Source: an uncultured Candidatus Saccharibacteria bacterium (GTDB taxonomy: Bacteria > Patescibacteriota > Minisyncoccia > 2-02-FULL-40-12 > GWA2-44-9). Taken from it: 40,610 nt of DNA. The notes beneath the pieces were generated by a model that saw only the letters and a program-made list of their open reading frames with translations, made no database searches and was not told where the DNA came from. Below, piece after piece: positions 1,037 to 40,610 of the stretch. A program made the translations under genes and the position numbers. The stretch is taken from assembly GCA_964491455.1 (NCBI GenBank), contig CAZBFM010000001.1, forward strand, positions 522,293 to 562,902, in the 5' to 3' direction. How positions within the stretch are numbered: position 1 is the first letter of the stretch; each line of letters starts with the position of its first letter.

Positions 1037-1048
1037 CATTGCAAAAAG

Positions 1049-1071
1049 AACTGCCGTTTGGCAGTTTTTTT
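1049..1071. terminator. Rho-independent terminator, bidirectional (A-run upstream, T-run downstream)
   Basis: AACTGCC-GTTT-GGCAGTT hairpin followed by TTTTTTT, preceded by AAAAAG. Confidence 0.7.
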
Positions 1072-1080
1072 GTAGCTAAA

Positions 1081-1208
1081 GAAGCAAGGTGGGATTCGAA
1101 CGGCCGCAGCGTTGCGATAGCAAGCAGCTGACGCCGCGAGGCCTGGTCCCGAAGCGAGTATTCGCGACGGCGAATACTCGACCGAGGGCGAGACCACCCT
1201 TCCCGCCA
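1081..1208 (-). other. Degenerate inverted tRNA-Ser-like element / structured RNA candidate
   Basis: Exact 14-nt inverted copy of the tRNA-Ser T-arm GTTCGAATCCCACC (1088-1101). Exact 13-nt direct copy of its acceptor end CCACCCTTCCCGC (1194-1206, followed by CA). Internal perfect 10-bp hairpin GAGTATTCGC-GACG-GCGAATACTC. The T stem and acceptor do not pair as in a functional tRNA. Confidence 0.3.
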
Positions 1209-1236
1209 TTACAAATGCAGACGCCGGTGATATACT
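1209..1236 (+). promoter_or_regulatory. Sigma70-like promoter candidate for 1264-1692
   Basis: TTACAA, 16-nt spacer, TATACT. Confidence 0.4.
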
Positions 1237-1263
1237 GAACGTGCGTATAAATTAATTATTCTT

Positions 1264-1692
1264 ATGAAGCAACTCGAAAAAGTATTATCGTCATTTTTCG
1301 CATCTCTCCCGAATCTCCCCGCGAGCATCCGAGAATTCCTCGTTAAAATCGCACCGTACTTTGCAGTGATTGGTTTTATTCTGTCGCTCCCTGCAATTCT
1401 CTCATTGATAGGGCTGGGATCCTTCGCGTCAGTTATCGCAGGTATTGGAGGCAACTGGGCAAACGACGGCGGCACCGCACTTGCCATCATCTACTCTATC
1501 GTCAGCACTATTCTTCTCGGTCTCTCAATTAGTGGACTCTTTGCGCGGCACATGGAGGGATGGCGTTACAGCTACTACAACGCGCTCGCTGGTGGCGTCT
1601 ATGCAATCTTGCGCTACGACTTGGGAGGTTTGATTATCGGCACCGGCATTTCATTGTACGTGCTTTTCCAGATTCGCTCGCACTACAAATAG
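1264..1692 (+). CDS. Small multi-pass membrane protein, function unknown
   Basis: 142-aa ORF with an ATG start and 3-4 hydrophobic helices. No motif recognised. Confidence 0.6.
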   Translation: MKQLEKVLSSFFASLPNLPASIREFLVKIAPYFAVIGFILSLPAILSLIGLGSFASVIAGIGGNWANDGGTALAIIYSIVSTILLGLSISGLFARHMEGWRYSYYNALAGGVYAILRYDLGGLIIGTGISLYVLFQIRSHYK

Positions 1693-1753
1693 CCACGCAC
1701 AGCGTGGCTCGACGTTGCGAAATCACGATTTTCGTGGTATTCTTTGACGTCCT

Positions 1754-3289
1754 ATGAGCTCCACGCCCTCTCCTATCGCATCGACCACATCCACCCCTCG
1801 CCCACCAGTCGTGGTTGTATTGGGTCACGTGGATCATGGAAAGACCAAGCTTCTCGACGTGATTCGTAAGACCAACGTCGTCGCCGGCGAGTCAGGCGGC
1901 ATCACGCAACACATCGGTGCCTATCAGGTTACGGCCGAGGGAAAGACGCTTACGTTCTTGGACACGCCAGGGCATGAAGCATTTACCGCGATCCGCAGTC
2001 GCGGAGCACATGTAGCAGATATTGCGATCTTGGTGGTCGCCGCCGACGAGTCCGTCAAGCCACAGACCAAGGAAGCTATCCGCATCATCAAAGAATCTGG
2101 TCTTCCTACTATTATCGCCATCAATAAGATCGACAAAGAGGGAGCAAACTCCGCAAAGGTAAAGCAGGATCTCGCACAAGAAGATGTGCTCGTCGAAGAA
2201 TGGGGCGGACAGACGCCTGCAGTTGAAATTTCGGCAAAAGATGGCCGTGGCATTCCTGAGCTCTTAGAAATGATTGGCTTGGTAGCCGACTTGCTTGAGC
2301 TCAAAGAAATCTTGCCCGCACAATCTTCAGGTATCATCATCGAGTCAAATCTTGATAAGCGTCGCGGCTATGTTGCCACTGCACTAGTCAAAGAAGGTAT
2401 TTTGCACGTTGGTGACTGGATAGTCGTTGACCACGTCGTCGGCAAAGTAAAAAGCATGGAAGATTTTCTGGGAACTCCAATCCAAGAAGCTCGCCCCTCG
2501 CAACCAGTACTGCTGACCGGATGGCAAGAACCTCCACGCGTTGGGGGCACGTATCACACAGCGCCATCGAAAAAGTCTGCCGAAGAACTCGCTGCCGACT
2601 CTATCACTCCCCCACCAGCTGCATTCGATACATTCCGCGGAGGCGACCATGGCACATCATCGGATCGGCTTACCTTGAATGTCATTTTCAAAGCGGATGT
2701 CGCTAGCTCGCTTGAAGCGATCGAACTTTCTATCGCAGCAATTCCTTCGGAGCAAATCTCTCTTCGTGTGCTCGGCTCTGGCATCGGCAACATCACCGAG
2801 GGTGATGTGAAAACAGCTGCAGCAAAAGGTGCAATAATTTTGGGATTTCGTGTGCAGCCAGATTCAGCTGCAGCAAAACTCGCTGAACGCGACGGCATCA
2901 CGATTCGTTCGTTTGATATCATCTACGAACTCATCGAGGCTATCCGCAACGAACTAGCCGCGCTTCTACCCACCGAGACACAGCGCACCGTGGTCGGCAA
3001 ACTCAAAGTGCTTGCCATCTTTAAAACTGATGCGCGCTCTGTTATCTTAGGCGGGCGCGTCACCACTGGATCGATTCGCAAGGGATCACTCGTGGATCTA
3101 GCGCAGTCCGAAAAGCCGATTCGTATCGGAAAAATCACGAGTCTCCAGCGCGAAAAAGAAGACGTCACCGAAGTCGCGCAAGGCGCTGACTGTGGTATGC
3201 GAATCGACACGAATGCATTCGAAGGTGAGGTTCGCGAGGGCGATGTGCTAGAATTCATCACCGAAGAGCAGGTTAAAAAAACGCTCTAA
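1754..3289 (+). CDS. infB: Translation initiation factor IF-2 (short form lacking the long N-terminal region)
   Basis: GTPase motifs VLGHVDHGKTKLLD, LDTPGHEAF and AINKIDK. C-terminal IF-2 domains are present. 511 aa. Confidence 0.95.
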   Translation: MSSTPSPIASTTSTPRPPVVVVLGHVDHGKTKLLDVIRKTNVVAGESGGITQHIGAYQVTAEGKTLTFLDTPGHEAFTAIRSRGAHVADIAILVVAADESVKPQTKEAIRIIKESGLPTIIAINKIDKEGANSAKVKQDLAQEDVLVEEWGGQTPAVEISAKDGRGIPELLEMIGLVADLLELKEILPAQSSGIIIESNLDKRRGYVATALVKEGILHVGDWIVVDHVVGKVKSMEDFLGTPIQEARPSQPVLLTGWQEPPRVGGTYHTAPSKKSAEELAADSITPPPAAFDTFRGGDHGTSSDRLTLNVIFKADVASSLEAIELSIAAIPSEQISLRVLGSGIGNITEGDVKTAAAKGAIILGFRVQPDSAAAKLAERDGITIRSFDIIYELIEAIRNELAALLPTETQRTVVGKLKVLAIFKTDARSVILGGRVTTGSIRKGSLVDLAQSEKPIRIGKITSLQREKEDVTEVAQGADCGMRIDTNAFEGEVREGDVLEFITEEQVKKTL

Positions 3290-3393
3290 CCGGCGCAGCA
3301 CCGCTTCGCCTGCTAGCTCCGTGGTACAAGCAGTGGTGCTAGATAGTAAAGGTGTATATGAACAATTCGAGGTATAGGTCATGCCGCATGCAT

Positions 3394-3468
3394 GGCGCAG
3401 TCGCCAAGTGGTAAGGCAAGGGTCTGCAAAACCCTTATTCGGGGGTTCGATTCCCCCCTGCGCCTCCA
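3394..3468 (+). tRNA. tRNA-Cys (GCA), CCA encoded
   Basis: Acceptor GGCGCAG/CTGCGCC, D arm with the A13:A22 mismatch typical of bacterial tRNA-Cys, anticodon loop CTGCAAA, T arm GGGGG-TTCGATT-CCCCC, discriminator T then CCA. Confidence 0.9.
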
Positions 3469-3493
3469 ATGTTCTTTTCGAGATAGGAGCGAT

Positions 3494-3985
3494 ATGCGTA
3501 TCATACGATGCACATCCACAAGTGTGTTCCCCTACACCGACCGACTCACGTATCTATTGCGACAACAGTCACCAGGCGATCGAGCACTGACCGATGATGA
3601 CATCAGAGAAGCGCTCAGTAATCCGAACTTCTACCTCTTCGTTGCCGTTGATGATCTGGGGTCGTTTCCCCATAATTACCTCGGTATGGGTAGCATTTTC
3701 TTCCAGCGCAATCTTGCGCGTTGGATTGCTGAAATTCACGATGTTGTTGTCGATGAGCCGCAACGTGGCCGACACATAGGTGAGACTCTGACAAAGAAAC
3801 TCATCGATACGGCGCAGTCATTCGCAACGAACCGAGATCAAAAGATAAAGTTGTTTCTGACGAGTCGACCCAGTCGCACGGCGGCCAATGCCCTCTATCG
3901 CAAGCTCGGCTTCGTGCTCGTCGCACAGGCAGATGGTGCATGGGGTACGAATTTGTACAAGATGAATATCATGCCAAGGCCCTGA
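3494..3985 (+). CDS. GNAT family N-acetyltransferase
   Basis: ATG at 3494 preceded by AGGAG (3485-3489). Acetyl-CoA motif A is VVVDEPQRGRHIGETL. The longer ORF from 3392 would overlap tRNA-Cys. Confidence 0.75.
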   Translation: MRIIRCTSTSVFPYTDRLTYLLRQQSPGDRALTDDDIREALSNPNFYLFVAVDDLGSFPHNYLGMGSIFFQRNLARWIAEIHDVVVDEPQRGRHIGETLTKKLIDTAQSFATNRDQKIKLFLTSRPSRTAANALYRKLGFVLVAQADGAWGTNLYKMNIMPRP

Positions 3986-4017
3986 CCCGCACGCCCGTTA
4001 CCTGATGGGCTTTTTTC

Positions 4018-4045
4018 TTGAAAAAGCCTTAAAAATCAGTATACT
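4018..4045 (+). promoter_or_regulatory. Sigma70-like promoter candidate for tRNA-Leu
   Basis: TTGAAA, 16-nt spacer, TATACT, about 17 nt upstream of the tRNA 5' end. Confidence 0.45.
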
Positions 4046-4061
4046 AGCGGTAGTACAGTTT

Positions 4062-4146
4062 GCCCGGGTGGCGGAATTGGTATACGCACTCGACTTAAAA
4101 TCGGGCGCCGCAAGGCATGTGGGTTCGACTCCCACCCCGGGCACCA
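4062..4146 (+). tRNA. tRNA-Leu (TAA), CCA encoded
   Basis: Acceptor GCCCGGG/CCCGGGC, anticodon stem CTCGA/TCGGG with loop CTTAAAA, long variable arm, T arm GTGGG-TTCGACT-CCCAC, discriminator A then CCA. Confidence 0.9.
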
Positions 4147-4164
4147 TCACATCTCAGTCAAAAC

Positions 4165-4186
4165 AGCACCCCGACATCGGGGTGCT
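4165..4186. terminator. Hairpin terminator shared by tRNA-Leu (+) and the 4194-4628 gene (-)
   Basis: AGCACCCCG-ACAT-CGGGGTGCT, followed by TTGCTT on the + strand and GTTTTG on the - strand. Confidence 0.55.
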
Positions 4187-4193
4187 TTGCTTC

Positions 4194-4628
4194 TCATTCG
4201 TATTCACGCATACCACGGGCATCGTAGAGACGGCTGCGCGTTTGCCCCACCGATAATGCACGAATTCGCGAGTAGCTTTCCACCGGCTGAAGAATCAATC
4301 CTCGCGTTGGCTTGGATGTGATGCGTATCTGCCACACCGGCATGCCGTGCATCAGGAAGTATCGCGCCTCCCCCGCAACGCCCGCACCCCACATGCCGTC
4401 GCCAAACGGAAGAAACACACCTCCATCGCACAGCGGGAGCACGCACTCATAGAAGTACACCATGCCATTGCCTGTACGCGACTTCGAGCGCCGATATCCT
4501 TCTTGATGCGCCACGATATTGGGGTTCTCAAGTGTGCAGTTCGGAATAAGTCGTGGGATACGCTCTAGGATGTACGCTTCCAGCTCCGTGTCGTATGAAT
4601 TTACGGGATGTCCAAAGTACAACCGCAT
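4194..4628 (-). CDS. Hypothetical protein; possibly nucleoside 2-deoxyribosyltransferase-like fold (weak guess)
   Basis: 144-aa ORF starting MRLYFGHPVNSYDTELE..., with ...GGVFLPFGDGMWGAGVAGEARYFLMHGMPVW. It lies between tRNA-Leu and tRNA-Arg on the opposite strand. Confidence 0.5.
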   Translation of the reverse strand: MRLYFGHPVNSYDTELEAYILERIPRLIPNCTLENPNIVAHQEGYRRSKSRTGNGMVYFYECVLPLCDGGVFLPFGDGMWGAGVAGEARYFLMHGMPVWQIRITSKPTRGLILQPVESYSRIRALSVGQTRSRLYDARGMREYE

Positions 4629-4708
4629 ACCTCACCTCCTCTGTCGCGACAATAGCAATCACGTTGAAATTGTAAAGAATCATGCGATACTCACAGTGAC
4701 TTCACCTT

Positions 4709-4780
4709 GCTCCTGTCGTTTAATGGATAAGACGCTGGCCTCCGAAGCCGGAAATTGAGGTTCGATTCCTCATGGGAGCA
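4709..4780 (+). tRNA. tRNA-Arg (CCG), CCA not encoded
   Basis: Acceptor GCTCCTG/TGGGAGC (two G:U pairs), D stem GTTT/AGAC, anticodon stem CTGGC/GCCGG with loop CTCCGAA, T arm TGAGG-TTCGATT-CCTCA, discriminator A. Confidence 0.85.
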
Positions 4781-4781
4781 C

Positions 4782-5375
4782 ATGACATTCAACGCACTGC
4801 TCATCGCGAGCGCAACGATACTTCAAATTGCTGGGTACATCTCCTACAACCGAGGAGTTGCTAATCGTACCATCACTCCCAATATTTCGTCGTGGCTCAT
4901 TTGGGGCACCATATCGCTCATCAGCTGCACTTCGTATATCTCGCTGAGCAACCAAAACATCTCGGTGTCGATCATGCCGATTGTAGTGACAATCATCGAT
5001 ATTGCCACCTTCGTGAGCATACTTCACCGAGGAACCTTTCAATCTATTACTCGTTTTGATACAGGAGCGCTCGTTTTGTCGCTTGCATCGCTCATTACAT
5101 GGGCATTCATCGACTCGGCGCAAGCGGCAAACATCCTCGTCCAGGCTGCCCTCCTCATTGGAACACTGCCAACCATTCACGGAGCATACTTGAATCCGTC
5201 GTATGAAAGACCTACTCCATGGTTTCTGTGGTCGTGCGGATTTCTCGTAGCAACTATCATCGTTGCGCGCCAAGATATTCACTGGGTTGCCTATCTTTCT
5301 CCCCTGTTGCAATTGGCCATGTATCTAACCATCGGCACACTCGCGCTTCGCGCAACAAAAAACGCCACCGCGTAG
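4782..5375 (+). CDS. Multi-pass integral membrane protein, function unknown
   Basis: ATG at 4782 immediately after tRNA-Arg; the track start at 4755 lies inside the tRNA. About six hydrophobic helices. Confidence 0.6.
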   Translation: MTFNALLIASATILQIAGYISYNRGVANRTITPNISSWLIWGTISLISCTSYISLSNQNISVSIMPIVVTIIDIATFVSILHRGTFQSITRFDTGALVLSLASLITWAFIDSAQAANILVQAALLIGTLPTIHGAYLNPSYERPTPWFLWSCGFLVATIIVARQDIHWVAYLSPLLQLAMYLTIGTLALRATKNATA

Positions 5376-6152: not shown

Positions 6153-6219
6153 AGGTGACGTACAATATATACGGTGCTATCGTAGCACTAGTTTATCTAT
6201 TTCGGGAGGTACCTTACCA

Positions 6220-7077
6220 ATGCTCGCAATGCTCCTGACGGTACAAATTCTGACGCAAGAAATACCGATCATATACTCGGCGAACATCCCCGATCCATCG
6301 AAGCGAGCAGTTGCGCAAGGGCAAGCCATCGCGCTGCAACTTACGCCACTCAAGTGTGCTCATCCCATTGTCTTCAACGATGTCGCGTACCGCTGTCGAC
6401 CCGATGGTTTCGTTATCATCGGGATTCCTATGAACACGCAAGCGCGAATCTATCCCGTAACATCGGGCACGTCCGTTGTGGCGCAACTCGATATCACCCC
6501 AACGGCATGGCAACGCATTCATCGATCAGCTCGACCGAGCGCGGGAAAAGCGCCACCGGCACAGCTTGATCGAGATCGTATCGCAAAAGACACAGCATTC
6601 TCGGCACACGCGGATGCACGTTGGAGCTCGTATCATCTGCGCGTACCGCTTGCACTTCCATTGAGTTCCGCATTTCGAATCACGGATCCCTTTGGCCTTC
6701 AGCGACTCTATGGGAAGCAAATGGCAACGATCGGACACAATGGAGTGGATCTCGCCGCTCCTGTCCAGCAATCGTGGAGTCGCAGCGCTCCGCTTGCGCA
6801 AAGCATGGCATCCGGCGTTGTTGTACTGGCGTCACGCCTCTGGGCGGAAGGCAATACGGTGGTCGTCTATCATGGCGATTCAATCTATACCTCATATTGT
6901 CATCTCCGCATCATCACTGTGAAGCGCGGCGAGCTCGTAAGCTCCGGACAAGCGCTTGGAGAAGTCGGTAGCACGGGACAATCTTCAGGCCCCCATTTGC
7001 ACCTCACATTTCGCATCAACGGCATCAATGTTGATCCCCTTCTCGCGCGTATCTCCCTCAATGAGTCACTCCGCTAA
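6220..7077 (+). CDS. M23 family metallopeptidase
   Basis: ATG at 6220 with GGGAGG at 6205-6210. Motifs HNGVDLAAP and GSTGQSSGPHLHLTFRINGINVDPL. The track start at 5980 overlaps the convergent 5673-6152 gene. Confidence 0.8.
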   Translation: MLAMLLTVQILTQEIPIIYSANIPDPSKRAVAQGQAIALQLTPLKCAHPIVFNDVAYRCRPDGFVIIGIPMNTQARIYPVTSGTSVVAQLDITPTAWQRIHRSARPSAGKAPPAQLDRDRIAKDTAFSAHADARWSSYHLRVPLALPLSSAFRITDPFGLQRLYGKQMATIGHNGVDLAAPVQQSWSRSAPLAQSMASGVVVLASRLWAEGNTVVVYHGDSIYTSYCHLRIITVKRGELVSSGQALGEVGSTGQSSGPHLHLTFRINGINVDPLLARISLNESLR

Positions 7078-7082
7078 ACACA

Positions 7083-7108
7083 ACCTGCACATCACTGTGC
7101 AGGTTTTT
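7083..7108 (+). terminator. Rho-independent terminator after the M23 gene
   Basis: ACCTGCAC-ATCACT-GTGCAGGT followed by TTTTT. Confidence 0.7.
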
Positions 7109-7139
7109 CATGATAAAATTTCATCACTACATACGTATT

Positions 7140-8621
7140 ATGCACCCCGAAAAAAAGAGCTTCATCATCCTATTCTTTCTTCTAGCGATCATATCAGGTG
7201 GATTATTAGCATGGCGCTTAGGGTTTAATCCTACGGTAGGAACATTCTTCGCATCAAACACCACAACACAAGAGCTGAAATTCCAAACAACATCAGCGAC
7301 GAGAATCAATGAAGTGGGCCGCGCAGGTACCTATGACTACTCACCTTCTAGTATTCGTGATGCTTCTGGGATGAAGGTCTACGTATGCGGTGGTGGAGTT
7401 GCGGGCGACCCGATGTCGGGCCATGACGCCATTTATTTGACGCAATTTGCTCCCGACGGGACAAAAGTCATCGATTCGCAACGCGTTATAGCACCCACTA
7501 TTACCACCGACTCCGACGACTCTATGCACGCATGTGCTCCGAGCGTGATTCAGCACAGTTTTTCACTATTGGAAAATGGCGCAAATAAATATCTCGCCTA
7601 CTACGAATGCGCACCAAAAGTGTACCGCACCAGCGACCAGGCCCACGTAGACATGTTCACTCAGATTTGTGTTGCCTACAGCGATGACGGCATCACCTGG
7701 AAAAAATATAACAAAACCGCATGGGAAGCAGCTGGAACACTTGTATCCTCAACGGAACCGGCCACTCCTGTCATTACAATCAATCCAATAATGGCTAGTC
7801 TTTTCGGAATCCGCGTCTCTGGTGGAAAATACTTAACTGACAAAACTGCAATCGAAGGTGCGCAATCCTATGGCGTCGGTCATCCCAGCGCACTTGTTCG
7901 TGATGGCATGATTTGGCTTTACTACTATGACTCGGTAGGAATGTGGGGTGATCGTGGTTTGTTTTTAAGAAAATCAAACGACGGCGTTCATTTCACTGAC
8001 GCCGTTAAGATTACGAACATCAAATCTCCTGTTGAAGTAAAGTACGTTCAAAACCCGGTCGGAACTCAGCCTGGATATTTTGTAGCGCTCGGACATGCAT
8101 TTAACGTTCCCTACTATAATTATTCATGGGATGGCATTAACTGGCAGTGGACCGAAGAAGACTCTCAAGATTTCTATACATCGATGCTCGCGCAAAATTA
8201 CTCCCTTGCCGCGCCGGCATCAGGAATGTGCCTTTCGCCTGGCGGGTTAAGTTTGGTGAGTGATTCATCGGGAACAGTCCAGAACACAACCATCGTTGTT
8301 GCTACCAACGAAGGCAAACTTGGCGGCAGCGACGGGTGCACCGCAAGCAATGGTTGCTCATGTTACGACCCCCGCGAAGATGCGGCTCGTGGGTCAACAT
8401 GGCAAGCATCATTTTATACTGGAACGTTTGCCGCTATCGTGCCGATATCAACTCCCCTTCGCGGCGACCTCAACTCCGACGGCATCGTCAACGCCGCAGA
8501 CCTCTCTAGGCTCGTTACGATATTTGGACAGACGAGCGATCTCGGTGGCGCTGATCTGATACCAGGCAACGGGGTGGATATCTTCGACTATAACGAGCTC
8601 GTGAGGATATTGAATCAGTAG
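7140..8621 (+). CDS. TM-anchored Asp-box (BNR) beta-propeller protein, putative glycosidase-like, with C-terminal dockerin
   Basis: Start chosen at MHPEKKSF by parallel with the next gene. TM helix plus WRLGFNPTVGTFFASN motif. Asp-box-like repeats YSDDGITW, KSNDGVHF, YSWDGINW. Dockerin is GDLNSDGIVNAADLSRLV...ADLIPGNGVDIFDYNELV (8457-8621). Confidence 0.7.
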   Translation: MHPEKKSFIILFFLLAIISGGLLAWRLGFNPTVGTFFASNTTTQELKFQTTSATRINEVGRAGTYDYSPSSIRDASGMKVYVCGGGVAGDPMSGHDAIYLTQFAPDGTKVIDSQRVIAPTITTDSDDSMHACAPSVIQHSFSLLENGANKYLAYYECAPKVYRTSDQAHVDMFTQICVAYSDDGITWKKYNKTAWEAAGTLVSSTEPATPVITINPIMASLFGIRVSGGKYLTDKTAIEGAQSYGVGHPSALVRDGMIWLYYYDSVGMWGDRGLFLRKSNDGVHFTDAVKITNIKSPVEVKYVQNPVGTQPGYFVALGHAFNVPYYNYSWDGINWQWTEEDSQDFYTSMLAQNYSLAAPASGMCLSPGGLSLVSDSSGTVQNTTIVVATNEGKLGGSDGCTASNGCSCYDPREDAARGSTWQASFYTGTFAAIVPISTPLRGDLNSDGIVNAADLSRLVTIFGQTSDLGGADLIPGNGVDIFDYNELVRILNQ

Positions 8622-8630
8622 TATACTCAA
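8456..8630 (+). repeat. Copy 1 of a ~175-bp near-identical direct repeat (dockerin coding segment plus stop plus 9 nt)
   Basis: Matches 10310-10484 with 3 mismatches by eye. The remainder of the two genes is dissimilar at the DNA level. Confidence 0.9.
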
Positions 8631-8645
8631 GAAGAATTTCTTTGT

Positions 8646-10475
8646 ATGCATCCAAGTAAGCGAGCATTCATTCTCCTCGTTGTTATACTAGCTCTCATTT
8701 CTGGTGGTCTTTTGATGTGGCGGTTTGGGGTAACGTTTGATGCGGGAAGGTTCTTTGCAGCCGAGAACAGCGATGGGGTCGATCCTCAATATATTTTTGT
8801 TCGAAAAAGCAATACTTGCTCTAATTGCATTCTGTGGAATGGGCACTATCCGGAAAACTACAGCGCCGCAGCTATCAACGAAATCGTTACTCTTATTGGC
8901 ACAAAGGGAACACCCACGCGTCGACTCGGCGTCGGGGCTATCTTCGAACCAAATCAAATCGACATAGCAAAGACAAAGCAGTCTCTCGTCAATCTACTCC
9001 TTGCCTCATTAGAAAATGAATTCCCAGTCTTTATCTCCCTTGATAACTTTACCTGGTGGGATAACCGCCCAAACCTCTGGTATTGGTGGGAACCGGGTAT
9101 AAGTGCCGCCGAGAAAGCAGCACGCAAAGCGAATGTCGAGTGGTCCAACTGGGATGGAGATACGAACGACGCTAACGCACTTAAAATCAGCTGGACGAAT
9201 TGGGGTAGCCAGTTCCGCAGACCTCCGAGCCCTAATCTTTTGAGTCCCGCGTATATCGAGAATTCGATTTCTAACCTCAATCAACTATTACCGGTAATCA
9301 CCGAGTGGTATCGTCAGTTACCAGCAAATAAGAAATATTTACTCGGAGGCGTTGATTTTGGTAATGAGGTTGATATTGGTGCTAATTTTTATTACTACCC
9401 AAATGGCAATTCGTATACCAGCGGAGACCCAGTATCAACATTGAACACGGATCCTGCGAGTGACCCACACTATCCCACGAGCGACTTCTTGGCGCACACG
9501 ACTCAAATAGGCTACGCCGCATTGAAGCTCGGCGGTATCAAGTCGTCGGGAGCGATAACTACCGAAGACCTCAATGCCGCAGTTAATCGTTACCTAAATA
9601 TACTCACGAAGCACGCCTATGACGCAGGCATCCCGCGTAATAAGATATTCAATCACACCGGTGGCAAGGGGTCATCACCCGACTGGATATACCCATCAAC
9701 ACCTGCGTTCACCGATCTGCGCAGCACCCTCATGCCATATGCGTACCCCGGATGGAGCCTGTACGGCAATAAAACGAATCCTGTAAATAGCGTATTACTA
9801 AACAGCGCCCTCGATAGCGTGCCGGGCATGCAGTGGGCATCACCGGAATGGCTTCCCGACGCAACGGACGCTGCCGAATGGCTTTCCGCAGTCAGAAATA
9901 CATTAAACTATCGCAATAATCGATTCATTAATATCGCAAATTGGGAAGAAATCAGAAACAATCCTAATGCGTTATCGGCAATTCGTACCGCACTCGGAGA
10001 AAGCCCCGCATGCTGGGTAAGCAGCCCCACCGTCAGCGTAGCAGCGACGGGAAATTCCGCCGTTTTCACCGTGAGTGGCGGACAACATGCGACCGCTCAA
10101 TATCTGAATATTGCCACCAATTCGACCTTGAGAAGTGATGGCATTTTCCAAACAGCGGATATCGCCAATGACAATATCGTCGGCAAGAACAGCTACACCG
10201 TGCCGAATTTGACACCAGGTGTATATCATTGGCTTCTTGCGTCCGATGGGTGCAGCCCCGTGCAACGTCGTGTCGCGTATGGAACATTCGAAATTACCGC
10301 TTCGCAAGCCCTTCGCGGCGATCTCAACTCCGACGGCATCGTCAACGCCGCAGACCTTTCTAGGCTCGTTACGATATTTGGACAGACGAGCGATCTCGGT
10401 GGCGCTGATCTGATACCAGGCAACGGGGTGGATATCTTCGACTATAACGAGCTCGTGAGGATCTTGAATCAGTAG
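8646..10475 (+). CDS. TM-anchored protein of unknown (possibly carbohydrate-active) function with Ig-like module and C-terminal dockerin
   Basis: N-terminus MHPSKRAFILLVVILALISGGLLMWRFGVTFDAGRFFAAEN, Trp-rich central domain, dockerin identical to that of 7140-8621 (10311-10475). Confidence 0.7.
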   Translation: MHPSKRAFILLVVILALISGGLLMWRFGVTFDAGRFFAAENSDGVDPQYIFVRKSNTCSNCILWNGHYPENYSAAAINEIVTLIGTKGTPTRRLGVGAIFEPNQIDIAKTKQSLVNLLLASLENEFPVFISLDNFTWWDNRPNLWYWWEPGISAAEKAARKANVEWSNWDGDTNDANALKISWTNWGSQFRRPPSPNLLSPAYIENSISNLNQLLPVITEWYRQLPANKKYLLGGVDFGNEVDIGANFYYYPNGNSYTSGDPVSTLNTDPASDPHYPTSDFLAHTTQIGYAALKLGGIKSSGAITTEDLNAAVNRYLNILTKHAYDAGIPRNKIFNHTGGKGSSPDWIYPSTPAFTDLRSTLMPYAYPGWSLYGNKTNPVNSVLLNSALDSVPGMQWASPEWLPDATDAAEWLSAVRNTLNYRNNRFINIANWEEIRNNPNALSAIRTALGESPACWVSSPTVSVAATGNSAVFTVSGGQHATAQYLNIATNSTLRSDGIFQTADIANDNIVGKNSYTVPNLTPGVYHWLLASDGCSPVQRRVAYGTFEITASQALRGDLNSDGIVNAADLSRLVTIFGQTSDLGGADLIPGNGVDIFDYNELVRILNQ

Positions 10476-10484
10476 TATACTCAA
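10310..10484 (+). repeat. Copy 2 of the ~175-bp dockerin repeat
   Basis: See 8456-8630. Confidence 0.9.
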
Positions 10485-10490
10485 ATCACT

Positions 10491-11483
10491 ATGGAACCAA
10501 CACCTCAACCATCACCCTCTCACGCATCGCGCTGGTTCGTGCTCATTGGAGCTCTCATACTCATTGTGGGAGCAGCGTATGGCTCGTACTGGTATTTTAT
10601 TGAGAAGCAAAATCTTAGCTTCAATATCGATCTCAACACAAGCTCGGCATCAACAGACTCCCCCGTGCTCAACCTCACCCCCGGAGCAACGTCAATCACC
10701 ACAGGCCAACCAGGCTACTTTGATATCACCATTGATGCTGGTACCAGAAAAGTTTCCGCTGTCGATCTACGTCTCGCAATCACCGGAGCTGTCACGGGAT
10801 TAGCGATCGACACATCGACATCCGAGTTCACTGATCTCATTAAAGCTGCCAGTATTACGGGTCAAACCGCGACCATCGTTCTCGGTTCTGGCGCCACTCC
10901 TAAATCAGGAGTCAACCTCAAGGTTGCTCGTCTCACATTCACAGCGGGTGCGGTTGGCACAATCTCACTCTCAACAAGCGGATCCCAAGCGGCGTCAAAC
11001 GAGTCAACTACGAATATTCTCGCATCCTCCACCACTAGTACAATTTCAGTGGTTGCTATAGCGCTCAATCCACCTACAGCGACCCTTACTGCATCCCCCA
11101 CAACCATAAAGACTGGGCTGCTATTGAATTCTTCTGCAACGCTTACGTGGTCACATAATGGTACCAGTGCAACCATCTCACCAGCAGGAGTTGCGACATC
11201 CGTTGGCGCCACCGGCAGCACTACCGTGAGTCCCACCACAACCACCACGTACACGCTCACAGCAACAAATACTGATGGCTCAACTCCAACAACAGCAACA
11301 ATTACGGTCCAGAAAGTATGCGATGTTAATAACGATGGAGTCGTCGGCATCCTGGACATCAATCCTATCGTGGAGGACTTTGGGAAGCCCAGCGCACGAG
11401 CTGACTTCAATAAAACCGGCCTCGTAGACATTTTCGATTACAATATTTTTGTCACCAATTTTGCGAGTCAAAAAACAAACTAA
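10491..11483 (+). CDS. Adaptor-type protein: TM anchor, cohesin-like module, Ig-like module, C-terminal dockerin
   Basis: Cohesin-like segment YFDITIDAGTRKVSAVDLRLAI...VNLKVARLTFTAGAVGTISLS (about 10653-11001). Dockerin is CDVNNDGVVGILDINPIV...ADFNKTGLVDIFDYNIFV (11319-11483). Confidence 0.65.
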   Translation: MEPTPQPSPSHASRWFVLIGALILIVGAAYGSYWYFIEKQNLSFNIDLNTSSASTDSPVLNLTPGATSITTGQPGYFDITIDAGTRKVSAVDLRLAITGAVTGLAIDTSTSEFTDLIKAASITGQTATIVLGSGATPKSGVNLKVARLTFTAGAVGTISLSTSGSQAASNESTTNILASSTTSTISVVAIALNPPTATLTASPTTIKTGLLLNSSATLTWSHNGTSATISPAGVATSVGATGSTTVSPTTTTTYTLTATNTDGSTPTTATITVQKVCDVNNDGVVGILDINPIVEDFGKPSARADFNKTGLVDIFDYNIFVTNFASQKTN

Positions 11484-11489
11484 CATCGT

Positions 11490-12365
11490 ATGACGTCATC
11501 CCTCCTTCGATCATCGGTAGCATTTGCAGTCATGATCCTTCTGCTGGCACCAACTACCGTATTCGCACTCGCAGGTGGACCCACGCTATCCTTGCAACCA
11601 AGCGCCTCTACCACCAGCACGAATAATCAATTCACCGTTCAACTTTCTCTCGATACAAAAAGCTATACCGTCACAGCGGTCGATGTGAAGATCTCCTTCC
11701 CTTCTGACAAGTTGCAGGCACTCTCTATTACTCCGGGAACATTTCTACCCTCAGAGCTCATACCCGGTTCGGTTGGCCCAGGAACCGCCGCTATCACCAT
11801 GGCGGGTGGAGCAACGGGAAAGCAAGGCACGGGCACAGTAGCAATAGTCACCTTCAAGGCACTCAGTGCCGGGTCTGCCACAATTACATTCGACGCGTCC
11901 ACTCAAATAGCCGCAGTAGGCCAGACAAGCAACGTTGTCGACACACTGTCGCCGACAACAGTCACCATCTCAGGTGCCACCGTCATTACGTCCACACCGA
12001 CAGCGACGATATCCGCGACACCCACGCCAACATCCGGATCATGCCCAACACAATATGACCCCGTCTGTGGAACGAACGGCGTGACCTACGTAAATCGCTG
12101 CTCGGCTGAAATCGTCTATCGCAAAACCGTCGCCTACGTTGGAGCATGCACCACCGCGTCTACAACACCCACCACGTCACCGCGCATACCATCAGTAGGC
12201 CAAATATCAACTGGCCCCGGCGATGTCACCATCGTGGCACTTATCCTAAGCTCGCTGACAACACTCTTGTATGTGGGCTACACGCGCTCAAACGCATTCC
12301 GAAAAAACGAAATTGAGGAGATCGCAAAAGACGAACGCGAAACCCCTCCTGATTTTCGATCGTAG
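11490..12365 (+). CDS. Anchoring scaffoldin-like protein: signal peptide, cohesin-like module, Kazal-like module, C-terminal TGPGD-TM-DFRS anchor
   Basis: Signal peptide MTSSLLRSSVAFAVMILLLAPTTVFALA. Cohesin-like FTVQLSLDTKSYTVTAVDVKISFPSDKLQAL...GTVAIVTFKALSAGSATITFD. Kazal signature CPTQYDPVCGTNGVTYVNRC...GAC (12042-12149). Anchor module at 12207-12365. Confidence 0.7.
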   Translation: MTSSLLRSSVAFAVMILLLAPTTVFALAGGPTLSLQPSASTTSTNNQFTVQLSLDTKSYTVTAVDVKISFPSDKLQALSITPGTFLPSELIPGSVGPGTAAITMAGGATGKQGTGTVAIVTFKALSAGSATITFDASTQIAAVGQTSNVVDTLSPTTVTISGATVITSTPTATISATPTPTSGSCPTQYDPVCGTNGVTYVNRCSAEIVYRKTVAYVGACTTASTTPTTSPRIPSVGQISTGPGDVTIVALILSSLTTLLYVGYTRSNAFRKNEIEEIAKDERETPPDFRS

Positions 12366-33298: not shown

Positions 33299-34849
33299 AT
33301 GTCGCATGACTACCTCGCGTACGGACGCGCAACCGAAATACAATCTCCTAGCGATAGACGGCTCTACCGCCTCCTGGAAATGCAGCCGGGTATATTCTCC
33401 TGGGGGACGCTCATCGCTGTCGTCGCTGCTTCGTACTGGTTTCCCGTGTTTGCGTCTCTTTTTATTATCGGGTTCGACGTATACTGGTTGATGAAGACAA
33501 TTTTTCTGTCAGCTCACATGAACCATACGTATCGAAAGATGCGAGCACAGCAACGCATAGATTGGATGCGGCGACTTCGCGAGGAAGATCCTTCATCAGC
33601 AATGCTTCCCGATGTTCACTTCACTGACATTCGCCATCTCGTTATTTTGCCCATGGCAACGGAACCCCATGAAGTCGTTCGTGAAAGTTTTGAAGGACTC
33701 TTAAAGACCACCTGGCCACTAGAACGCATGCTCGTCGTATTGGCCATTGAAGGTCGGGTAGGGGACTCAGCGCGTGCCATTGCGAAACGCATCCAGCAAG
33801 AATACGGCAATCGATTTTTGCGATTGATTGTATCTGAGCATCCCGATGCAATCGAGGGCGAGATTCGCGGTAAGGGCTCCAATGAAACCTGGGCAGGGAA
33901 ACAGGCCGTACAAGTCATAGACGAACTCGGCATTCCTCGCGAGCGCGTGATCGTTTCGGTATTCGATGTCGACACCGTTGCACCTCATGATTTTTTTGCT
34001 TGTCTCACCTGGAATTTCCTCACCGCAGCTCAACCGCTTCGCTCGTCCTTTCAACCGATTCCTATTTTCAGTAACAATATCTGGCACGCTCCGGCATTCG
34101 CGCGCGTATTCGCATTTTCGACAACATTTTGGCAAATGATTCAGCAGGCACGACCCGAGCAGCTCGTCACGTTTTCAAGCCAATCAATAAGCCTGCCAGC
34201 GCTTATCGATGTCGGTTTTTGGCAGGTCAACGTCGTATCAGAAGATTCCCAGATATATTGGAAATGCTTCCTACGCTATGATGGCGACTGGACGACCGTC
34301 CCGCTCAACTATCCAGTCTATATGGATGCGAACGTTGCGCCGACATTCTGGGGCACCCTCATCAATCAATATAAGCAGATCCGCAGATGGCACTATGGAG
34401 TAGAGAACAACCCGTACTTCCTCTTTGGCTTCATCAAGAACAAAAAAATTGCATGGCAAAAAAAGTGGCACCATGCATTCAATATGATTGAAAAAACACA
34501 TTCGAGCGCTACGAATGCATTGATCATCTTCCTCCTTGGTTGGCTTCCAGTAACCATCGGTACGGGACATTTTGGTGCCAGCGTCCTCTCGTATAATCTT
34601 CCGCACATCACCAAAGTCATCATGATGCTCGCCATGGTGGGACTCATCTCATCCGCGGTCATATCACTCGTTCTTCTCCCGCCGCGCCCACCAAATTTCG
34701 GAAAATTCCGATTTGTATGGATGATTCTTCAGTGGCTTCTTTTCCCAATCAATTTCATCCTCTTTGGTTCTATTCCGGCGCTGGACGCGCAAACACGTCT
34801 CATGCTTGGTAAGTATATGGGCTTTTGGGTGACACCGAAGTCACGATAG
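33299..34849 (+). CDS. Membrane-embedded family 2 glycosyltransferase, processive type (cellulose/chitin synthase-like)
   Basis: N- and C-terminal TM helices. Motifs VSVFDVDTV (DxD), VVSEDSQIYWK (ED) and QYKQIRRWHYG (QxxRW). Confidence 0.65.
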   Translation: MSHDYLAYGRATEIQSPSDRRLYRLLEMQPGIFSWGTLIAVVAASYWFPVFASLFIIGFDVYWLMKTIFLSAHMNHTYRKMRAQQRIDWMRRLREEDPSSAMLPDVHFTDIRHLVILPMATEPHEVVRESFEGLLKTTWPLERMLVVLAIEGRVGDSARAIAKRIQQEYGNRFLRLIVSEHPDAIEGEIRGKGSNETWAGKQAVQVIDELGIPRERVIVSVFDVDTVAPHDFFACLTWNFLTAAQPLRSSFQPIPIFSNNIWHAPAFARVFAFSTTFWQMIQQARPEQLVTFSSQSISLPALIDVGFWQVNVVSEDSQIYWKCFLRYDGDWTTVPLNYPVYMDANVAPTFWGTLINQYKQIRRWHYGVENNPYFLFGFIKNKKIAWQKKWHHAFNMIEKTHSSATNALIIFLLGWLPVTIGTGHFGASVLSYNLPHITKVIMMLAMVGLISSAVISLVLLPPRPPNFGKFRFVWMILQWLLFPINFILFGSIPALDAQTRLMLGKYMGFWVTPKSR

Positions 34850-37084: not shown

Positions 37085-38299
37085 CTAACTTCGAAAATCG
37101 AGCGGGTCTCTATCGCTCGTGATCGCGTCAACTTCATGACGCTTATACGTCGACGTATGCGTATACGAAACATACAACAAGGTCAGAATCGATGAGATAA
37201 GAAATGCTGCGAGAAGCGCATCGCCGGGTCCCGTTTGCACCACGCCCGTAGTGCCGGGTGCCGGCTTGGTTACTGAAAAAACAAGTGAATCATTCGCCTC
37301 ACCATCTCCGACAGTTTGCATCTTCGCAACGGATTGTAGTTGAGTGGTGCCAACCACAAATTGCGCGGCAGATACATTCACACGAAGTGTGATAGTGGTA
37401 CTCTGACTCGGACCTAACATTCCCAGAGAAAGACCCCCCGCAGCAATCGTGTCAACGCTCGTGGGAATACCGGCAATCGTAGTGCTGCCCGCAATATATG
37501 TAATTCCGGGTGGCAACAGTATCATCACCATCGCCCCGGAAAGATTCCCAAGCGCAGAAGCATTACGTGCTTGCAGGCGAATTTCAGCTACTTGTCCGGT
37601 TCGAATCTGAATCGACTTCGATTGCCCGCCTGACACGGAAATATTCTCTCCACTCATCAGAATACTCGGAGACCCTCGAGGCGGTGGCGTTGACGTGGAT
37701 GTTATCGTGGGGAAGGGGGTTGGAACTACCGTCATCGTGGGAATCGGTGTGTTGCTTGGGGCTGGAGTAGCGGTTGGTGCTGGAATCGCGGTTGGAGTAG
37801 GAGTAGCCGTTGGCGTTGGTGAGGCAACGGTACTACAGGTGACGGCGTTGGACGCAGTATCTGCCCATGCCTTATGACGATAGACGTAGGTGTGCCCTGG
37901 TTGAATGTTCGTGTCAGTGTACGTCGTCACATTCAGATTTGTGCACGGTGAAAGATTATTTGGACCTCCACATACCCACTGATTTGTTGCGCCGTCCATT
38001 GAACGCAAAATACTATTGGAATCGTGTCCAGCGGGAAGCGTCCACGTAAGCACATTTTGCGTGGCACTGCATTGAATAGAGAGTGCTGATGGCGCATGCA
38101 CAGCGGCAGCAAAGAATCGATTCACTTCAAGAGTAAAGCCCAAACGCGCCCACACTATCAAGAGGATGCTAACGATCGTGAACGCGCTCGCCAAAAGAAT
38201 CCAGTGCACTCGATAAAATCGCAGCATTGAACTCCGAGCTAAAGCTAGACGTTGCCGTATACCGTCGAAAGCGCTTTGAATACTCGGGGGAAGCTGCAT
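37085..38299 (-). CDS. Surface adhesin-like protein: TM plus RFFA motif, FN3-like module, PT linker, DUF11-like repeat, TGPGD-TM-DFRS anchor
   Basis: N-terminus ...IVWARLGFTLEVNRFFAAA. PT linker PTPTATPTPTAIPAPTATPAPSNTPIPT. DUF11-like LLPPGITYIAGSTTIAGIPTS...TTITLRVNV. Anchor module at 37085-37237. An alternative start is at 38227. Confidence 0.7.
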   Translation of the reverse strand: MQLPPSIQSAFDGIRQRLALARSSMLRFYRVHWILLASAFTIVSILLIVWARLGFTLEVNRFFAAAVHAPSALSIQCSATQNVLTWTLPAGHDSNSILRSMDGATNQWVCGGPNNLSPCTNLNVTTYTDTNIQPGHTYVYRHKAWADTASNAVTCSTVASPTPTATPTPTAIPAPTATPAPSNTPIPTMTVVPTPFPTITSTSTPPPRGSPSILMSGENISVSGGQSKSIQIRTGQVAEIRLQARNASALGNLSGAMVMILLPPGITYIAGSTTIAGIPTSVDTIAAGGLSLGMLGPSQSTTITLRVNVSAAQFVVGTTQLQSVAKMQTVGDGEANDSLVFSVTKPAPGTTGVVQTGPGDALLAAFLISSILTLLYVSYTHTSTYKRHEVDAITSDRDPLDFRS

Positions 38300-38301
38300 G
38301 A

Positions 38302-40317
38302 CTACGATCTAAAATCTTCGCCTTCCGACTGCGCGCGATGAGCGATATCCTTTATTTCTCGACGGCGATACATATCGGAGTGAGCATATCCCACATATAA
38401 GAGCGAAACGAGTGCCGAAATAATCAGCGCTACCACTGTTGTCTCTCCGGGTCCCGTGCTTACCGGGGGGATAACGACTCCACCATTCACGATCACAATT
38501 GGCAATTGCGCTGACAACGACGGAACACCGGTCGCCGTGATGGTTGCGGCATTAATAATAGTCGTAGTTCCAGAAGGCAGCATTGCCGCACCAGTCACGA
38601 CGCCGGAAAGCGTCACAACCGATTCCTGACCTGGAGCCAAGACTCCGAGGGGGATTCCAGTCGTCGTGATCACGTCAGAAGCGCTGATACCGCCCACTGC
38701 CACACTTCCTCTGAGGAGGCTCACTTCTGGCGGCAAGATGTCGCGTATGACCGCATCAGTAATGGGGAGGGACGACGTGTTTCTCACGCGAAGAACAAAT
38801 GAAAGCGTTTGCGTGGGCGACGTGCGAACAGGGGAGGACTCCGCAGTATCTCCGCGAGTGATATTCTTGCCCATCTTTGTCAGGGAGATGCTCAATGAAG
38901 GCGGGGCTGTCATCACCGAAATAAACGCTGAGTCGCTTACTTCGCTAACATTCGATCCGCGAGCAAATGCAGTGTTCGTAAGCGAGCTTGTTCCCGACGA
39001 GAAGAACGATGCATTTGCAATTGTCGCGTAGAACCGAACGGTCACCGTGCGGCCCTGTGCCATGTTTCCGATACTTAAGCCAGTCGACACCACGCCGTCA
39101 GTCGCTGCGATGGCATCAATGGTAGTAGATCCAACTACATAGGATAGCCCCGATGGCAGGGCATCACGCAGCGTCACAGCATTCACAGTTCCCGTTCCTG
39201 AGGACGTGATCGCAATCGAGAACTCAACAGTTTGCAGTGGATTCGCAGTAACGCTATCGGATTGAGACGACCCCTGCGTAACATTGCGAACCAACTTCGC
39301 GATGCTCAATTGAGGTACCTGCGGGGCAGGGGTAGGCGTCGCAGAAGGCGTTGGAGTAGCGGTTGGAGTTACTGACACGGAAGGGGTCGGGGTGGGAGTG
39401 CCCGTCGGAGTCGGGGTCGGAGTCGCGGTTGGAGTCGCTGTGGCAATCGCTCCACAATTAATGCCCGTATTAAAGAGCATAGCCGAATGATACTCAAACT
39501 GGTCTGATCTTGGATCGGCAGTACATACAGCGTCTACGTTATAGACATTGAAATCGATTTGATAGCGTCCGCATACAGCAGTGATCGTTTCAGAAAAACT
39601 CTTTGTTTGCCCCGCATCTATCGTTGTCCATCCGTGAATGTCTTTTGTACCTCCAGCTTCGTTGCCATATGAGTAGTCGCAATTAGCTGTACGGTCGTGA
39701 TACACGCGCGTTACATGACCAACGGGGAAGGAGTACGTATTTGTGAGATTCGAGAAATTCGTCTGAGAGCTACCGGGCGAAACCGTCATGCAGGCACCAC
39801 CCCCGGATTTTGAGTTAATAAGTACTTTTCCGCCCTTTTCTGATGTGAGATTGACACAGACAGAGCCTCCGCCTGGTGTCGCTGTTGGCGTTACTGTAGG
39901 TGCTGCTGTAGGAGTAGCATCGGGAGTCGGCGTAATATCGGGCCCGGGGGGTACAGTGGGATTTGACTGAATACAAACAGCAGCCGTGTTGTTTGCAGCT
40001 GGATCGCAACCATTCGCACAGACCTCTACGATAGCTCCGCTGCAATTAGAATAGTGCTCAAACACATCAGAGCCCGAACATGAGCGCGCTGTTGCTATGC
40101 ACGCATCGGCACCACCATTATCTGTAGGGGGTGGCGTAACATCAAATTGATCAGCTGGTGCACCCTCCTTATTACTAGCAAAAAAACGAGATACGTTGAG
40201 TGAGAATCCATGCTGCCACCAGAAATAGAATCCAGTAACTGCAATTACAATAAATAGTGCAAAAATAAATATCTTATTTGATCGGATATATGCAGAGACT
40301 CTTGAAAATAGGGGCAC
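38302..40317 (-). CDS. Surface adhesin-like protein: TM plus RFFASN motif, Cys-rich head, PT linkers, two DUF11-like repeats, TGPGE-TM-DFRS anchor
   Basis: GTG start. N-terminus ...FYFWWQHGFSLNVSRFFASN. DUF11-like VTLRDALPSGLSYVVGSTTID and VIRDILPPEVSLLRGSVAVGG. Anchor module at 38302-38460. Confidence 0.7.
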   Translation of the reverse strand: MPLFSRVSAYIRSNKIFIFALFIVIAVTGFYFWWQHGFSLNVSRFFASNKEGAPADQFDVTPPPTDNGGADACIATARSCSGSDVFEHYSNCSGAIVEVCANGCDPAANNTAAVCIQSNPTVPPGPDITPTPDATPTAAPTVTPTATPGGGSVCVNLTSEKGGKVLINSKSGGGACMTVSPGSSQTNFSNLTNTYSFPVGHVTRVYHDRTANCDYSYGNEAGGTKDIHGWTTIDAGQTKSFSETITAVCGRYQIDFNVYNVDAVCTADPRSDQFEYHSAMLFNTGINCGAIATATPTATPTPTPTGTPTPTPSVSVTPTATPTPSATPTPAPQVPQLSIAKLVRNVTQGSSQSDSVTANPLQTVEFSIAITSSGTGTVNAVTLRDALPSGLSYVVGSTTIDAIAATDGVVSTGLSIGNMAQGRTVTVRFYATIANASFFSSGTSSLTNTAFARGSNVSEVSDSAFISVMTAPPSLSISLTKMGKNITRGDTAESSPVRTSPTQTLSFVLRVRNTSSLPITDAVIRDILPPEVSLLRGSVAVGGISASDVITTTGIPLGVLAPGQESVVTLSGVVTGAAMLPSGTTTIINAATITATGVPSLSAQLPIVIVNGGVVIPPVSTGPGETTVVALIISALVSLLYVGYAHSDMYRRREIKDIAHRAQSEGEDFRS

Positions 40318-40390
40318 GAGATATAGAGAGTTAAAATCTCCCTTGAGTATACACCCTGGGAGATTTCATATACACCAACATATCCACAAA

Positions 40391-40610
40391 TTAGCTGCGA
40401 AAATCGAGTGGATCCTTTTCTTTTCCAATAGTATCGGCTTCTCGACGGAGATACGCGGACGATCTCGTGTAACCACTATACAAAAGCGTGAGAGCCGCTG
40501 CCGTAAGAAGCGCCATCAACACCGCATCGCCTGGTCCGGTCGGGATCTCACCGGCTTGCTGCTGACTTGAGTTACTCCCAAATACAGTGACCTGCACCGT
40601 CGCCACAACA
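40391..40610 (-). CDS. C-terminal end of a third adhesin-like protein with TGPGD-TM-DFRS anchor (gene continues beyond the window)
   Basis: The frame is open to the window edge and ends ...IPTGPGDAVLMALLTAAALTLLYSGYTRSSAYLRREADTIGKEKDPLDFRS. Confidence 0.65.
   Translation of the reverse strand, partial: VVATVQVTVFGSNSSQQQAGEIPTGPGDAVLMALLTAAALTLLYSGYTRSSAYLRREADTIGKEKDPLDFRS

Follow-up and report, generated by a model that had tools for sequence, protein, structure and literature searches.

Surface proteins anchored by sortases of classes A-F end in a signal of the LPXTG type (TIGR01167 / Gram_pos_anchor), in which a motif containing Thr-Gly precedes a hydrophobic helix of ~20 residues and a group of basic residues. 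Their carriers have an N-terminal export signal and adhesin-like or Ig-like passenger domains, and the sortase, with its His/Cys/Arg triad, is encoded beside its substrates. Sortases are found in more than half of the genomes of the Candidate Phyla Radiation (CPR) (PMC6744442). All of the features listed above recur in a stretch of 40,610 nucleotides from an uncultured bacterium deposited as Candidatus Saccharibacteria (GCA_964491455.1, contig CAZBFM010000001.1; hereafter the window) and in the DNA that adjoins it. Four surface proteins encoded in the window share a C-terminal tail made up of the motif [VI]xTGPG[DE], a transmembrane (TM) helix, and a conserved 25-residue cytoplasmic segment ending in DFRS. 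The tail is widespread, clade-restricted, and un-named, and we read it, with a probability of about 0.72, as a lineage-specific, non-canonical sortase signal with a dedicated, unclassified sortase.

The tail differs from LPXTG signals in several respects. It has no Leu-Pro, and [VI]-x-T-G-P-G-[DE] is kept mainly on the primed side; its helix ends in LLY[VS][GS]YT; and in place of the short, unspecific basic tail of LPXTG signals there are ~25 conserved cytoplasmic residues ending in D-F-R-S ([DN]F in relatives). The domain is invisible to existing hidden Markov models (HMMs), and its sortase falls under all class cutoffs. Lineage-restricted sortases encoded beside their own substrates are also known from class B (NPQTN), class D (LPNTA), class E (LAXTG), and the 'marine' GN type (TIGR03784, with a single target), and there, as here, the motif departs from LPXTG and Thr is kept at P1. 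However, these pairs keep Pro or Ala at P3/P4 and lack a conserved cytoplasmic tail. Unlike such dedicated pairs, the system described here supplies the enzyme with several substrates per genome, encoded at two or more loci, and the enzyme thus behaves like a housekeeping sortase of the clade. A C-terminal motif, TM helix, and basic cluster on multiple paralogous carriers per genome are likewise features of the PEP-CTERM/exosortase, PGF-CTERM/archaeosortase, GlyGly-CTERM/rhombosortase, and MYXO-CTERM systems, but the tail has no sequence match to any of these signals and the linked enzyme is a sortase.

The four carriers and their tails, which align over 51-53 residues each, are as follows.

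11490..12365, plus strand: 291-aa surface protein with a Sec-type signal peptide, a cohesin (PF00963), a Kazal domain, a PT linker, and tail 1
12207..12365, plus strand: tail 1, ISTGPGD...PPDFRS and stop, on the cohesin protein
37085..38299, minus strand: 404-aa surface protein with a conserved N-terminal signal module, an Ig-like/DUF11-related region, and tail 2
37085..37237, minus strand: tail 2, VQTGPGD...DPLDFRS and stop
38302..40317, minus strand: 671-aa surface protein with an N-terminal signal module, two DUF11 repeats (PF01345, TIGR01451), and tail 3
38302..38460, minus strand: tail 3, VSTGPGE...GEDFRS and stop
40391..40610, minus strand: 3' portion of the gene for a 771-aa DUF11 surface protein that runs past the window edge, with tail 4
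40391..40543, minus strand: tail 4, IPTGPGD...DPLDFRS and stop

An initial annotation of the window had singled out these tails. The nucleotide spans it gave for all four are correct, as are the endings it quoted for the three complete genes. For the fourth gene the tail stands and the frame does not, as the reading frame requires 40391-40609 on the minus strand rather than 40391-40610; only the last 72 codons of the 771-aa protein lie inside the window.

The alignment of the four tails has 15 invariant columns (T3, G4, P5, G6, A12, L21, L22, Y23, Y26, E36, I40, D50, F51, R52, and S53). An HMM built from it has exactly four matches in the six-frame translation of the window (E 1.5e-31 to 1.6e-29) and finds no fifth copy there, the next match having an E-value of 0.34. 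Similarly, the degenerate DNA pattern TGPG[DE]-x13-LLYxxY matches the window four times and none of 100 shuffled versions. The layout is compatible with a membrane topology: the motif lies ~5 residues ahead of a hydrophobic helix of 19-21 residues (Kyte-Doolittle mean 1.7-2.2 over a 19-residue window in each tail), and Arg and Lys residues follow the helix. A membrane-spanning segment and C-terminal positive charge are both present, and the segment beyond the helix runs to ~25 conserved residues. Tail DNA is ~71% identical per column among the four genes, and its many synonymous differences point to purifying selection on the peptide itself rather than to recent gene conversion.

The tail had been described as a modular, sorting-signal-like C-terminal domain of motif, TM helix, and basic stretch, and this description holds; the tail stands behind diverse extracellular domains. 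The carriers had also been called otherwise different proteins. This is true of the cohesin protein, which is 49% identical to the clustered proteins over 55 residues, essentially the tail alone; it is not true of the three clustered proteins, which are distant paralogues with 24-33% identity over a DUF11-containing region of ~200-660 aligned residues. Strongly hydrophobic segments number exactly two in each carrier, at the N-terminus and in the tail, and the 671-aa protein has an additional, weaker third window just above the cut-off. The N-terminal segment is a putative secretion signal in every window carrier, and in the cohesin class it is a classical signal peptide.

The module extends far beyond these four genes. 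An exhaustive search of 1.84 billion cluster representatives with the four-tail profile yields 211 protein clusters (50% identity) at E<=1e-3, with 144 at E<=1e-10, so the suggestion that the module might reflect recent paralogy alone fails. Two of the 211 are spurious repeat proteins. In the others, which are 41-1075 residues long, the module stands at the very C-terminus, with an end that is diverged or extended by some residues in a few. Among 83 full-length carriers, the passenger domains are DUF11 (36), PKD (14), cohesin (6), fn3 (3), and cupredoxin or Kazal, all of extracellular types, and public records name the carriers 'hypothetical' or 'DUF11 domain-containing protein'. A scan for the DNA pattern in 185,579 species genomes finds true tails only in ~11 related metagenome-assembled genomes (MAGs), usually several per contig and in tandem; all other matches are chance matches in unrelated taxa. 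A word-indexed protein search with the four-tail alignment returned two candidates, none significant, and the profile matches nothing meaningful among PDB sequences (best E 3.3).

Over 148 representatives, V in the motif is kept at 82%, T at 98%, G at 99%, P at 97%, the second G at 90%, and D/E at 89%. At the helix end Y23 and Y26 are conserved at 100%, and basic residues follow (R33 82%, R34 84%, R/H/K35 >90%). In the cytoplasmic part, E36 is kept at 93%, D48 at 90%, and F49 at 93%. Among 59 tails from the wider range of sortase-linked proteins, conservation holds at V (88%), T (98%), and G (100%) as P drops to 68% and the second G to 47%, indicating that the core is V-x-T-G.

The tail belongs to no named sorting-domain class, as the initial annotation had proposed. 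Neither the tails nor the full proteins match a sorting-signal model in NCBIfam r20 or Pfam-A, even at E<=10; models of the LPXTG (TIGR01167 / PF00746), PEP-CTERM, GlyGly-CTERM, and PGF-CTERM types have no tail match. The signal is described nowhere in the searchable literature. It had further been suggested that the tail represents a new class with an enzyme of its own that is yet to be found, given that no sortase is visible in the window. The absence is literally correct but misleading as a sign of an unknown enzyme, since the window simply ends 2.1 kb short of a sortase that heads the same co-directional gene cluster.

This became apparent from Logan contig L127, whose bases 6178-11001 are 100% identical to window positions 40610-35787. 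Its co-directional gene order is a 419-aa DUF11 protein, the sortase, the 771-aa, 671-aa, and 404-aa proteins, and recG, with intergenic gaps of 2-73 nt from the sortase through recG. The sortase gene is reached ~2.1 kb past base 40610 and lies directly upstream of the three tandem tail genes; the 771-aa tail gene starts 51 nt downstream of it, and the 404-aa gene closes the series of substrate genes, immediately ahead of recG.

L127 3353-4030, equivalent to window 42758-43435, minus strand: sortase gene (P0151), outside the window
L127 2046-3305 and L128 4424-5692: upstream DUF11 gene (419 aa on L127), with orthologues in L129-L135, L155, L181, and L182

The sortase is 220-225 aa long with a single N-terminal TM helix, and matches PF04203 at 71 bits (E 1e-19, cutoff 26.6). 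H129, C201, and R210, the first in the sequence LGHSSAYPWY and the second in SCYPVGT, do not vary among 16 orthologues and line up with the SrtC-1 (2xwg) catalytic residues. An AlphaFold2 (AF2) model (pLDDT 79) has only sortases among its listed PDB matches (E ~1e-9). The enzyme is thus a real sortase with an intact catalytic triad. The structural search places it about equally close to classes A, C, D, and E, with no class preference.

The gene immediately upstream of the sortase always encodes a DUF11 protein with a tail subtype of its own, V[KQ]TGP[AT]DS...AYA[AV]YTR[TS]...GLNF[SLK]K, represented on L127 by the variant VKTGPADS...GLNFKK of the 419-aa protein. This subtype resembles the tails of more distant clades, which suggests that duplication and divergence inside the operon gave rise to the DFRS subtype. 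A conserved frameshift in the second substrate gene of five MAGs was considered and rejected; the sequence is a separate gene for a small secreted protein.

Co-occurrence of sortase and tail is strict, as is their synteny. Homologues of the sortase number 218 at E<=1e-5, the best 120 all being at least 61% identical, and a scan of GTDB species genomes with the sortase alignment yields 53 loci, with identities from 99% down to 29%; every one lies in a MAG that is labelled Patescibacteria/CPR or is mislabelled. The four-tail HMM matches the flanks of 21 of the 24 loci whose sortase is at least 46% identical, the three exceptions being contig-end or partial matches, and of none of the 29 loci at 45% identity or below. 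When the HMM is iterated on C-termini, tails are found at 31 of the 53 loci, including most of those at 41-45% identity, where they take the form V[PSA]TG[GST][EDA]T-TM-Y[GK]R[ST]YFAQ[KR]R...[KR]xNF. Sortase and tail proteins are the only families of open reading frames (ORFs) present in all 18 well-sampled loci, and the same operon is found on independent JGI and Logan contigs (L181-L183). Because sortase and tail co-occur in every adequately sampled related locus, the tail is best read as a non-canonical sortase signal.

In many other Patescibacteria a different gene accompanies the enzyme. A membrane protein of ~310-330 aa, with one TM helix at its N-terminus, a CAP/SCP domain (PF00188, E 4.5e-13), and further TM helices at its C-terminus, precedes sortases of 53% identity or less. 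It is recurrently paired with these distant sortases and absent from the operon of the window clade.

L138 9080-9997, L140 9037-9993, L149, L153, and L160-L177: CAP-domain gene, upstream of the sortase

From these patterns we infer cleavage, a scissile bond, an acceptor, and a role for the conserved cytoplasmic end. Carrier proteins would be exported by their N-terminal signal, and the ~20-residue helix together with Y..YT[RH][ST]..[FY]RRRE would act as a stop-transfer element that holds the protein, leaving the last ~25 residues in the cytoplasm and placing [VI]-x-T-G-P-G-[DE] at the outer face of the membrane. There the membrane-anchored sortase encoded at the head of the gene cluster would cleave the motif, most likely between T and G, a site that fits the near-invariance of V-x-T-G on the outside. 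The enzyme would then pass the protein on to the cell wall, although another subunit is a possible acceptor; a peptidoglycan wall is likely present, given the M23 peptidase and LysM genes in the window. Its predicted substrates are the DUF11/PKD adhesin-like proteins and the single-cohesin protein.

Several observations weigh against this reading. No canonical pentapeptide (LPXTG, LAXTG, NPQTN, or LPXTA) precedes the helix: L and P are absent at P4/P3, and the motif is [VI]xTGPG[DE] with T-G at 98-100%. Conservation peaks on the leaving-group side (G-P-G-[DE]), which is atypical for characterized sortases, and the tails are unmatched by NCBIfam LPXTG-anchor or other sorting-signal models at E<=10. 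The sortase itself scores under every NCBIfam class cutoff (NF033745-8, TIGR03784), with bits/cutoff of 40.5/165 for class D, 40/166 for F, 35.5/160 for C, 32.2/160 for E, and 22.7/158 for GN, and at 36.1 bits it is just under the cutoff of 39.35 for the generic TIGR01076; its specificity is thus not inferable by homology. Synteny comes largely from fairly close relatives, so that part of the co-occurrence reflects shared ancestry. The scans for processing enzymes covered the window and the loci, and a second such enzyme may be encoded elsewhere. Finally, conservation of the ~25 cytoplasmic residues extends right to the C-terminus (D 90%, F 93%), which is not expected of a peptide that is merely cut and discarded.

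Why a supposedly discarded cytoplasmic tail should be conserved to its last residue is a testable question. The segment reads Y..YT[RH][ST]..[FY]RRRE...[DQ][PG][LM]DFRS-COOH, with a [DN]F end in relatives. A tentative answer is that the signal is bipartite, with a second, independently recognized cytoplasmic element in addition to the extracellular V-x-T-G-P-G-[DE]. A factor in the cytoplasm or the membrane might use this element for docking or retention and control which proteins gain access to the sortase, or the element might be a functional 'C-peptide' left in the membrane after cleavage. We know of no described sortase pathway that combines sequence-specific cytoplasmic recognition with primed-side specificity outside. 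The basic cytoplasmic N-terminus of the sortase (MRLHxRxR) was considered as a general partner of the acidic DFRS end and rejected, as it is reduced to MKKF or MKLKF where clades retain the [DN]F end; the partner of the cytoplasmic end, if one exists, is something other than the sortase N-terminus.

The hexapeptide P-L-D-F-R-S in which tails end also occurs in a cytosolic LOG/'lysine decarboxylase-like' protein (PF03641), as MPLDFRSSFHWRVFRIM near its N-terminus. Sister clades, whose tails end in NF, have EDFRS or TDFRA in the LOG-family protein. The match is probably coincidence or shared ancestry, although it could be a shared short linear motif.

L128 544-1365, L129 4524-5267, L132, L133, and L134: LOG-family gene, 4-5 kb upstream of the sortase and outside the window

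One alternative is a sortase-assembled pilus or fibre, in which the tail would still be a sortase signal and the clustered DUF11 proteins would be polymerized as pilin-like subunits in the style of class C. Such an assembly is in keeping with a conserved operon of one sortase and three to five Ig-like (DUF11) substrates, with the pilus sortase SrtC-1 (2xwg) as the best PDB sequence match and SrtC1 (3tbe) as the first entry of the structural list, and with a weak match between the isopeptide fimbrial domain TIGR04226 and the 419-aa protein (E 0.026). Class C sortases, though, typically have a C-terminal membrane anchor, whereas this enzyme has an N-terminal TM helix only and ends right after the strand of the catalytic Arg, and it is matched just as well by structures of classes A, D, and E. 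Furthermore, an alignment of 83 proteins contains no conserved Lys-containing pilin motif, its invariant columns lying only in the tail, and the same tail occurs on an unlinked cohesin protein and on PKD, fn3, and cupredoxin proteins, as would fit a general anchoring sortase. Polymerization is thus improbable. The CPR 'Pam' pilus described in a preprint was considered and set aside as unrelated, because it assembles by donor-strand exchange and not by sortase.

It is equally improbable that the tail is never cut. It would then be a permanent TM anchor whose cytoplasmic end (RRRE...DP[LM]DFRS) docks to a cytoplasmic or membrane partner for localization, signalling, or turnover, and the neighbouring sortase would act on something else or be linked through ancestry alone. 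The strong conservation of the cytoplasmic part to its last residues (E36, D48, and F49, as above), the persistence of the [DN]F end in distant relatives, and the lack of both Leu-Pro and an LPXTG-model match are what one would look for in such an anchor. A permanent anchor leaves unexplained, however, why V-x-T-G is near-invariant outside the cell and why sortase and tail occur together in 31 of 53 loci, tracking sortase identity. Moreover, the sampled clade DNA holds no other sortase-type substrate, with no canonical LPXTG-type C-terminus among 1188 sampled ORFs; no partner gene is conserved in all loci; and the cytoplasmic N-terminus of the sortase does not co-vary with the [DN]F end.

Processing by a rhombosortase/GlyGly-CTERM-like, exosortase/archaeosortase-like, or other intramembrane protease encoded beyond the scanned loci is very improbable: the G-P-G before the helix superficially resembles glycine-rich GlyGly-CTERM-type motifs, but the tails match no NCBIfam or Pfam sorting-domain model, and no exosortase, archaeosortase, rhombosortase, or myxosortase is present in the window or conserved in the neighbourhood of the 18 loci, where a sortase is always found instead.

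The tail also stands on one carrier whose gene neighbours bear on its function. The 291-aa protein has a cohesin that scores 28.6 bits against a PF00963 cutoff of 24.1, and it is directly preceded by three secreted proteins, otherwise of unknown family, that end in pairs of dockerin-like EF-hand repeats, two of them with identical 52-residue ends.

7110-8621, plus strand: secreted dockerin-like protein
8646-10475, plus strand: secreted dockerin-like protein
10491-11483, plus strand: secreted dockerin-like protein

The dockerin-like ends are sub-threshold (17.3-19.1 bits against 22.9 for Dockerin_1 and 21.9 against 29 for dockerin_GC). The gene arrangement nonetheless suggests that a CPR bacterium has a small surface display system built on cohesin and dockerin (7110-12365), in which the cohesin protein, a candidate anchoring scaffoldin, could display the dockerin-like enzymes encoded just upstream. 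A precedent is ScaE of Ruminococcus flavefaciens, a single-cohesin scaffoldin anchored by sortase via LPXTG (PMC2930009). Both are small proteins with a signal peptide, one cohesin, and a C-terminal sortase-type anchor, encoded beside dockerin-bearing or, here, dockerin-like proteins. ScaE has a canonical LPXTG, whereas here the dockerin scores are sub-threshold (17-22 bits) and the host is a CPR bacterium in which a cellulosome is not in evidence. Given the parallel with ScaE, a protein with cohesin, Kazal domain, and tail that follows three dockerin-like genes provides independent support for a surface-anchoring role of the tail.

A second conserved module is found at the N-terminus of carriers and consists of a basic stretch, a hydrophobic helix, and then W.x.GF[ST][LF]x[VIF]x[RK]FFA[AS]. 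In the window it is present in two tail proteins and two tail-less dockerin-like proteins.

7113-7271, plus strand: N-terminal module
8637-8774, plus strand: N-terminal module
38081-38227, minus strand: N-terminal module
40114-40266, minus strand: N-terminal module

Elsewhere it occurs in 63 of 90 full-length tail carriers and on small tail-less secreted proteins within the sortase operon of sister MAGs, and no Pfam or NCBIfam model matches it. It has the look of a signal-peptide or signal-anchor motif peculiar to the lineage, much in the way of YSIRK. An F at -3, as in this module, is unusual for a signal peptidase I site.

The remainder of the window contains housekeeping genes (IF-2, PNPase, PolA, RecG, S15, TsaE, tRNAs, and M23/LysM peptidases). 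The PNPase encoded there shares 95% identity with its counterpart in a 'Candidatus Paceibacterota' MAG and 72-90% with those in MAGs that carry the labels Yanofskybacteria, Patescibacteria, or (mislabelled) Saccharibacteria. Four tRNA genes (Ser-ACT, Cys-GCA, Leu-TAA, and Arg-CCG) are interspersed with IF-2 at 950-4781; the tRNA-Ser anticodon, 'act' according to ARAGORN, is unusual. Two multi-TM proteins, neither with a Pfam or NCBIfam match at E<=0.001, are also encoded, and a QxxRW-like motif (QIRRW) in the larger suggests a processive glycosyltransferase.

4755-5375, plus strand: 206-aa multi-TM protein
33299-34849, plus strand: 516-aa multi-TM protein

As a natural sortase whose recognition would have lost Leu-Pro and shifted toward the primed side, the enzyme is relevant to sortase enzymology and to orthogonal protein-ligation tags, and a bipartite signal, if true, would amount to a new orthogonal sortase/tag pair. 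Although CPR/Patescibacteria commonly have sortases, the substrates of these enzymes have largely been missed by annotation; the carriers described here are labelled hypothetical or DUF11 because LPXTG models miss the tail. Defining [VI]xTGPG[DE]...DFRS and the wider V-x-T-G...[DN]F family would reveal the surface proteome of a whole CPR clade, and its members, the DUF11/PKD adhesin-like proteins and the cohesin-based display, are candidates for host attachment in episymbionts.

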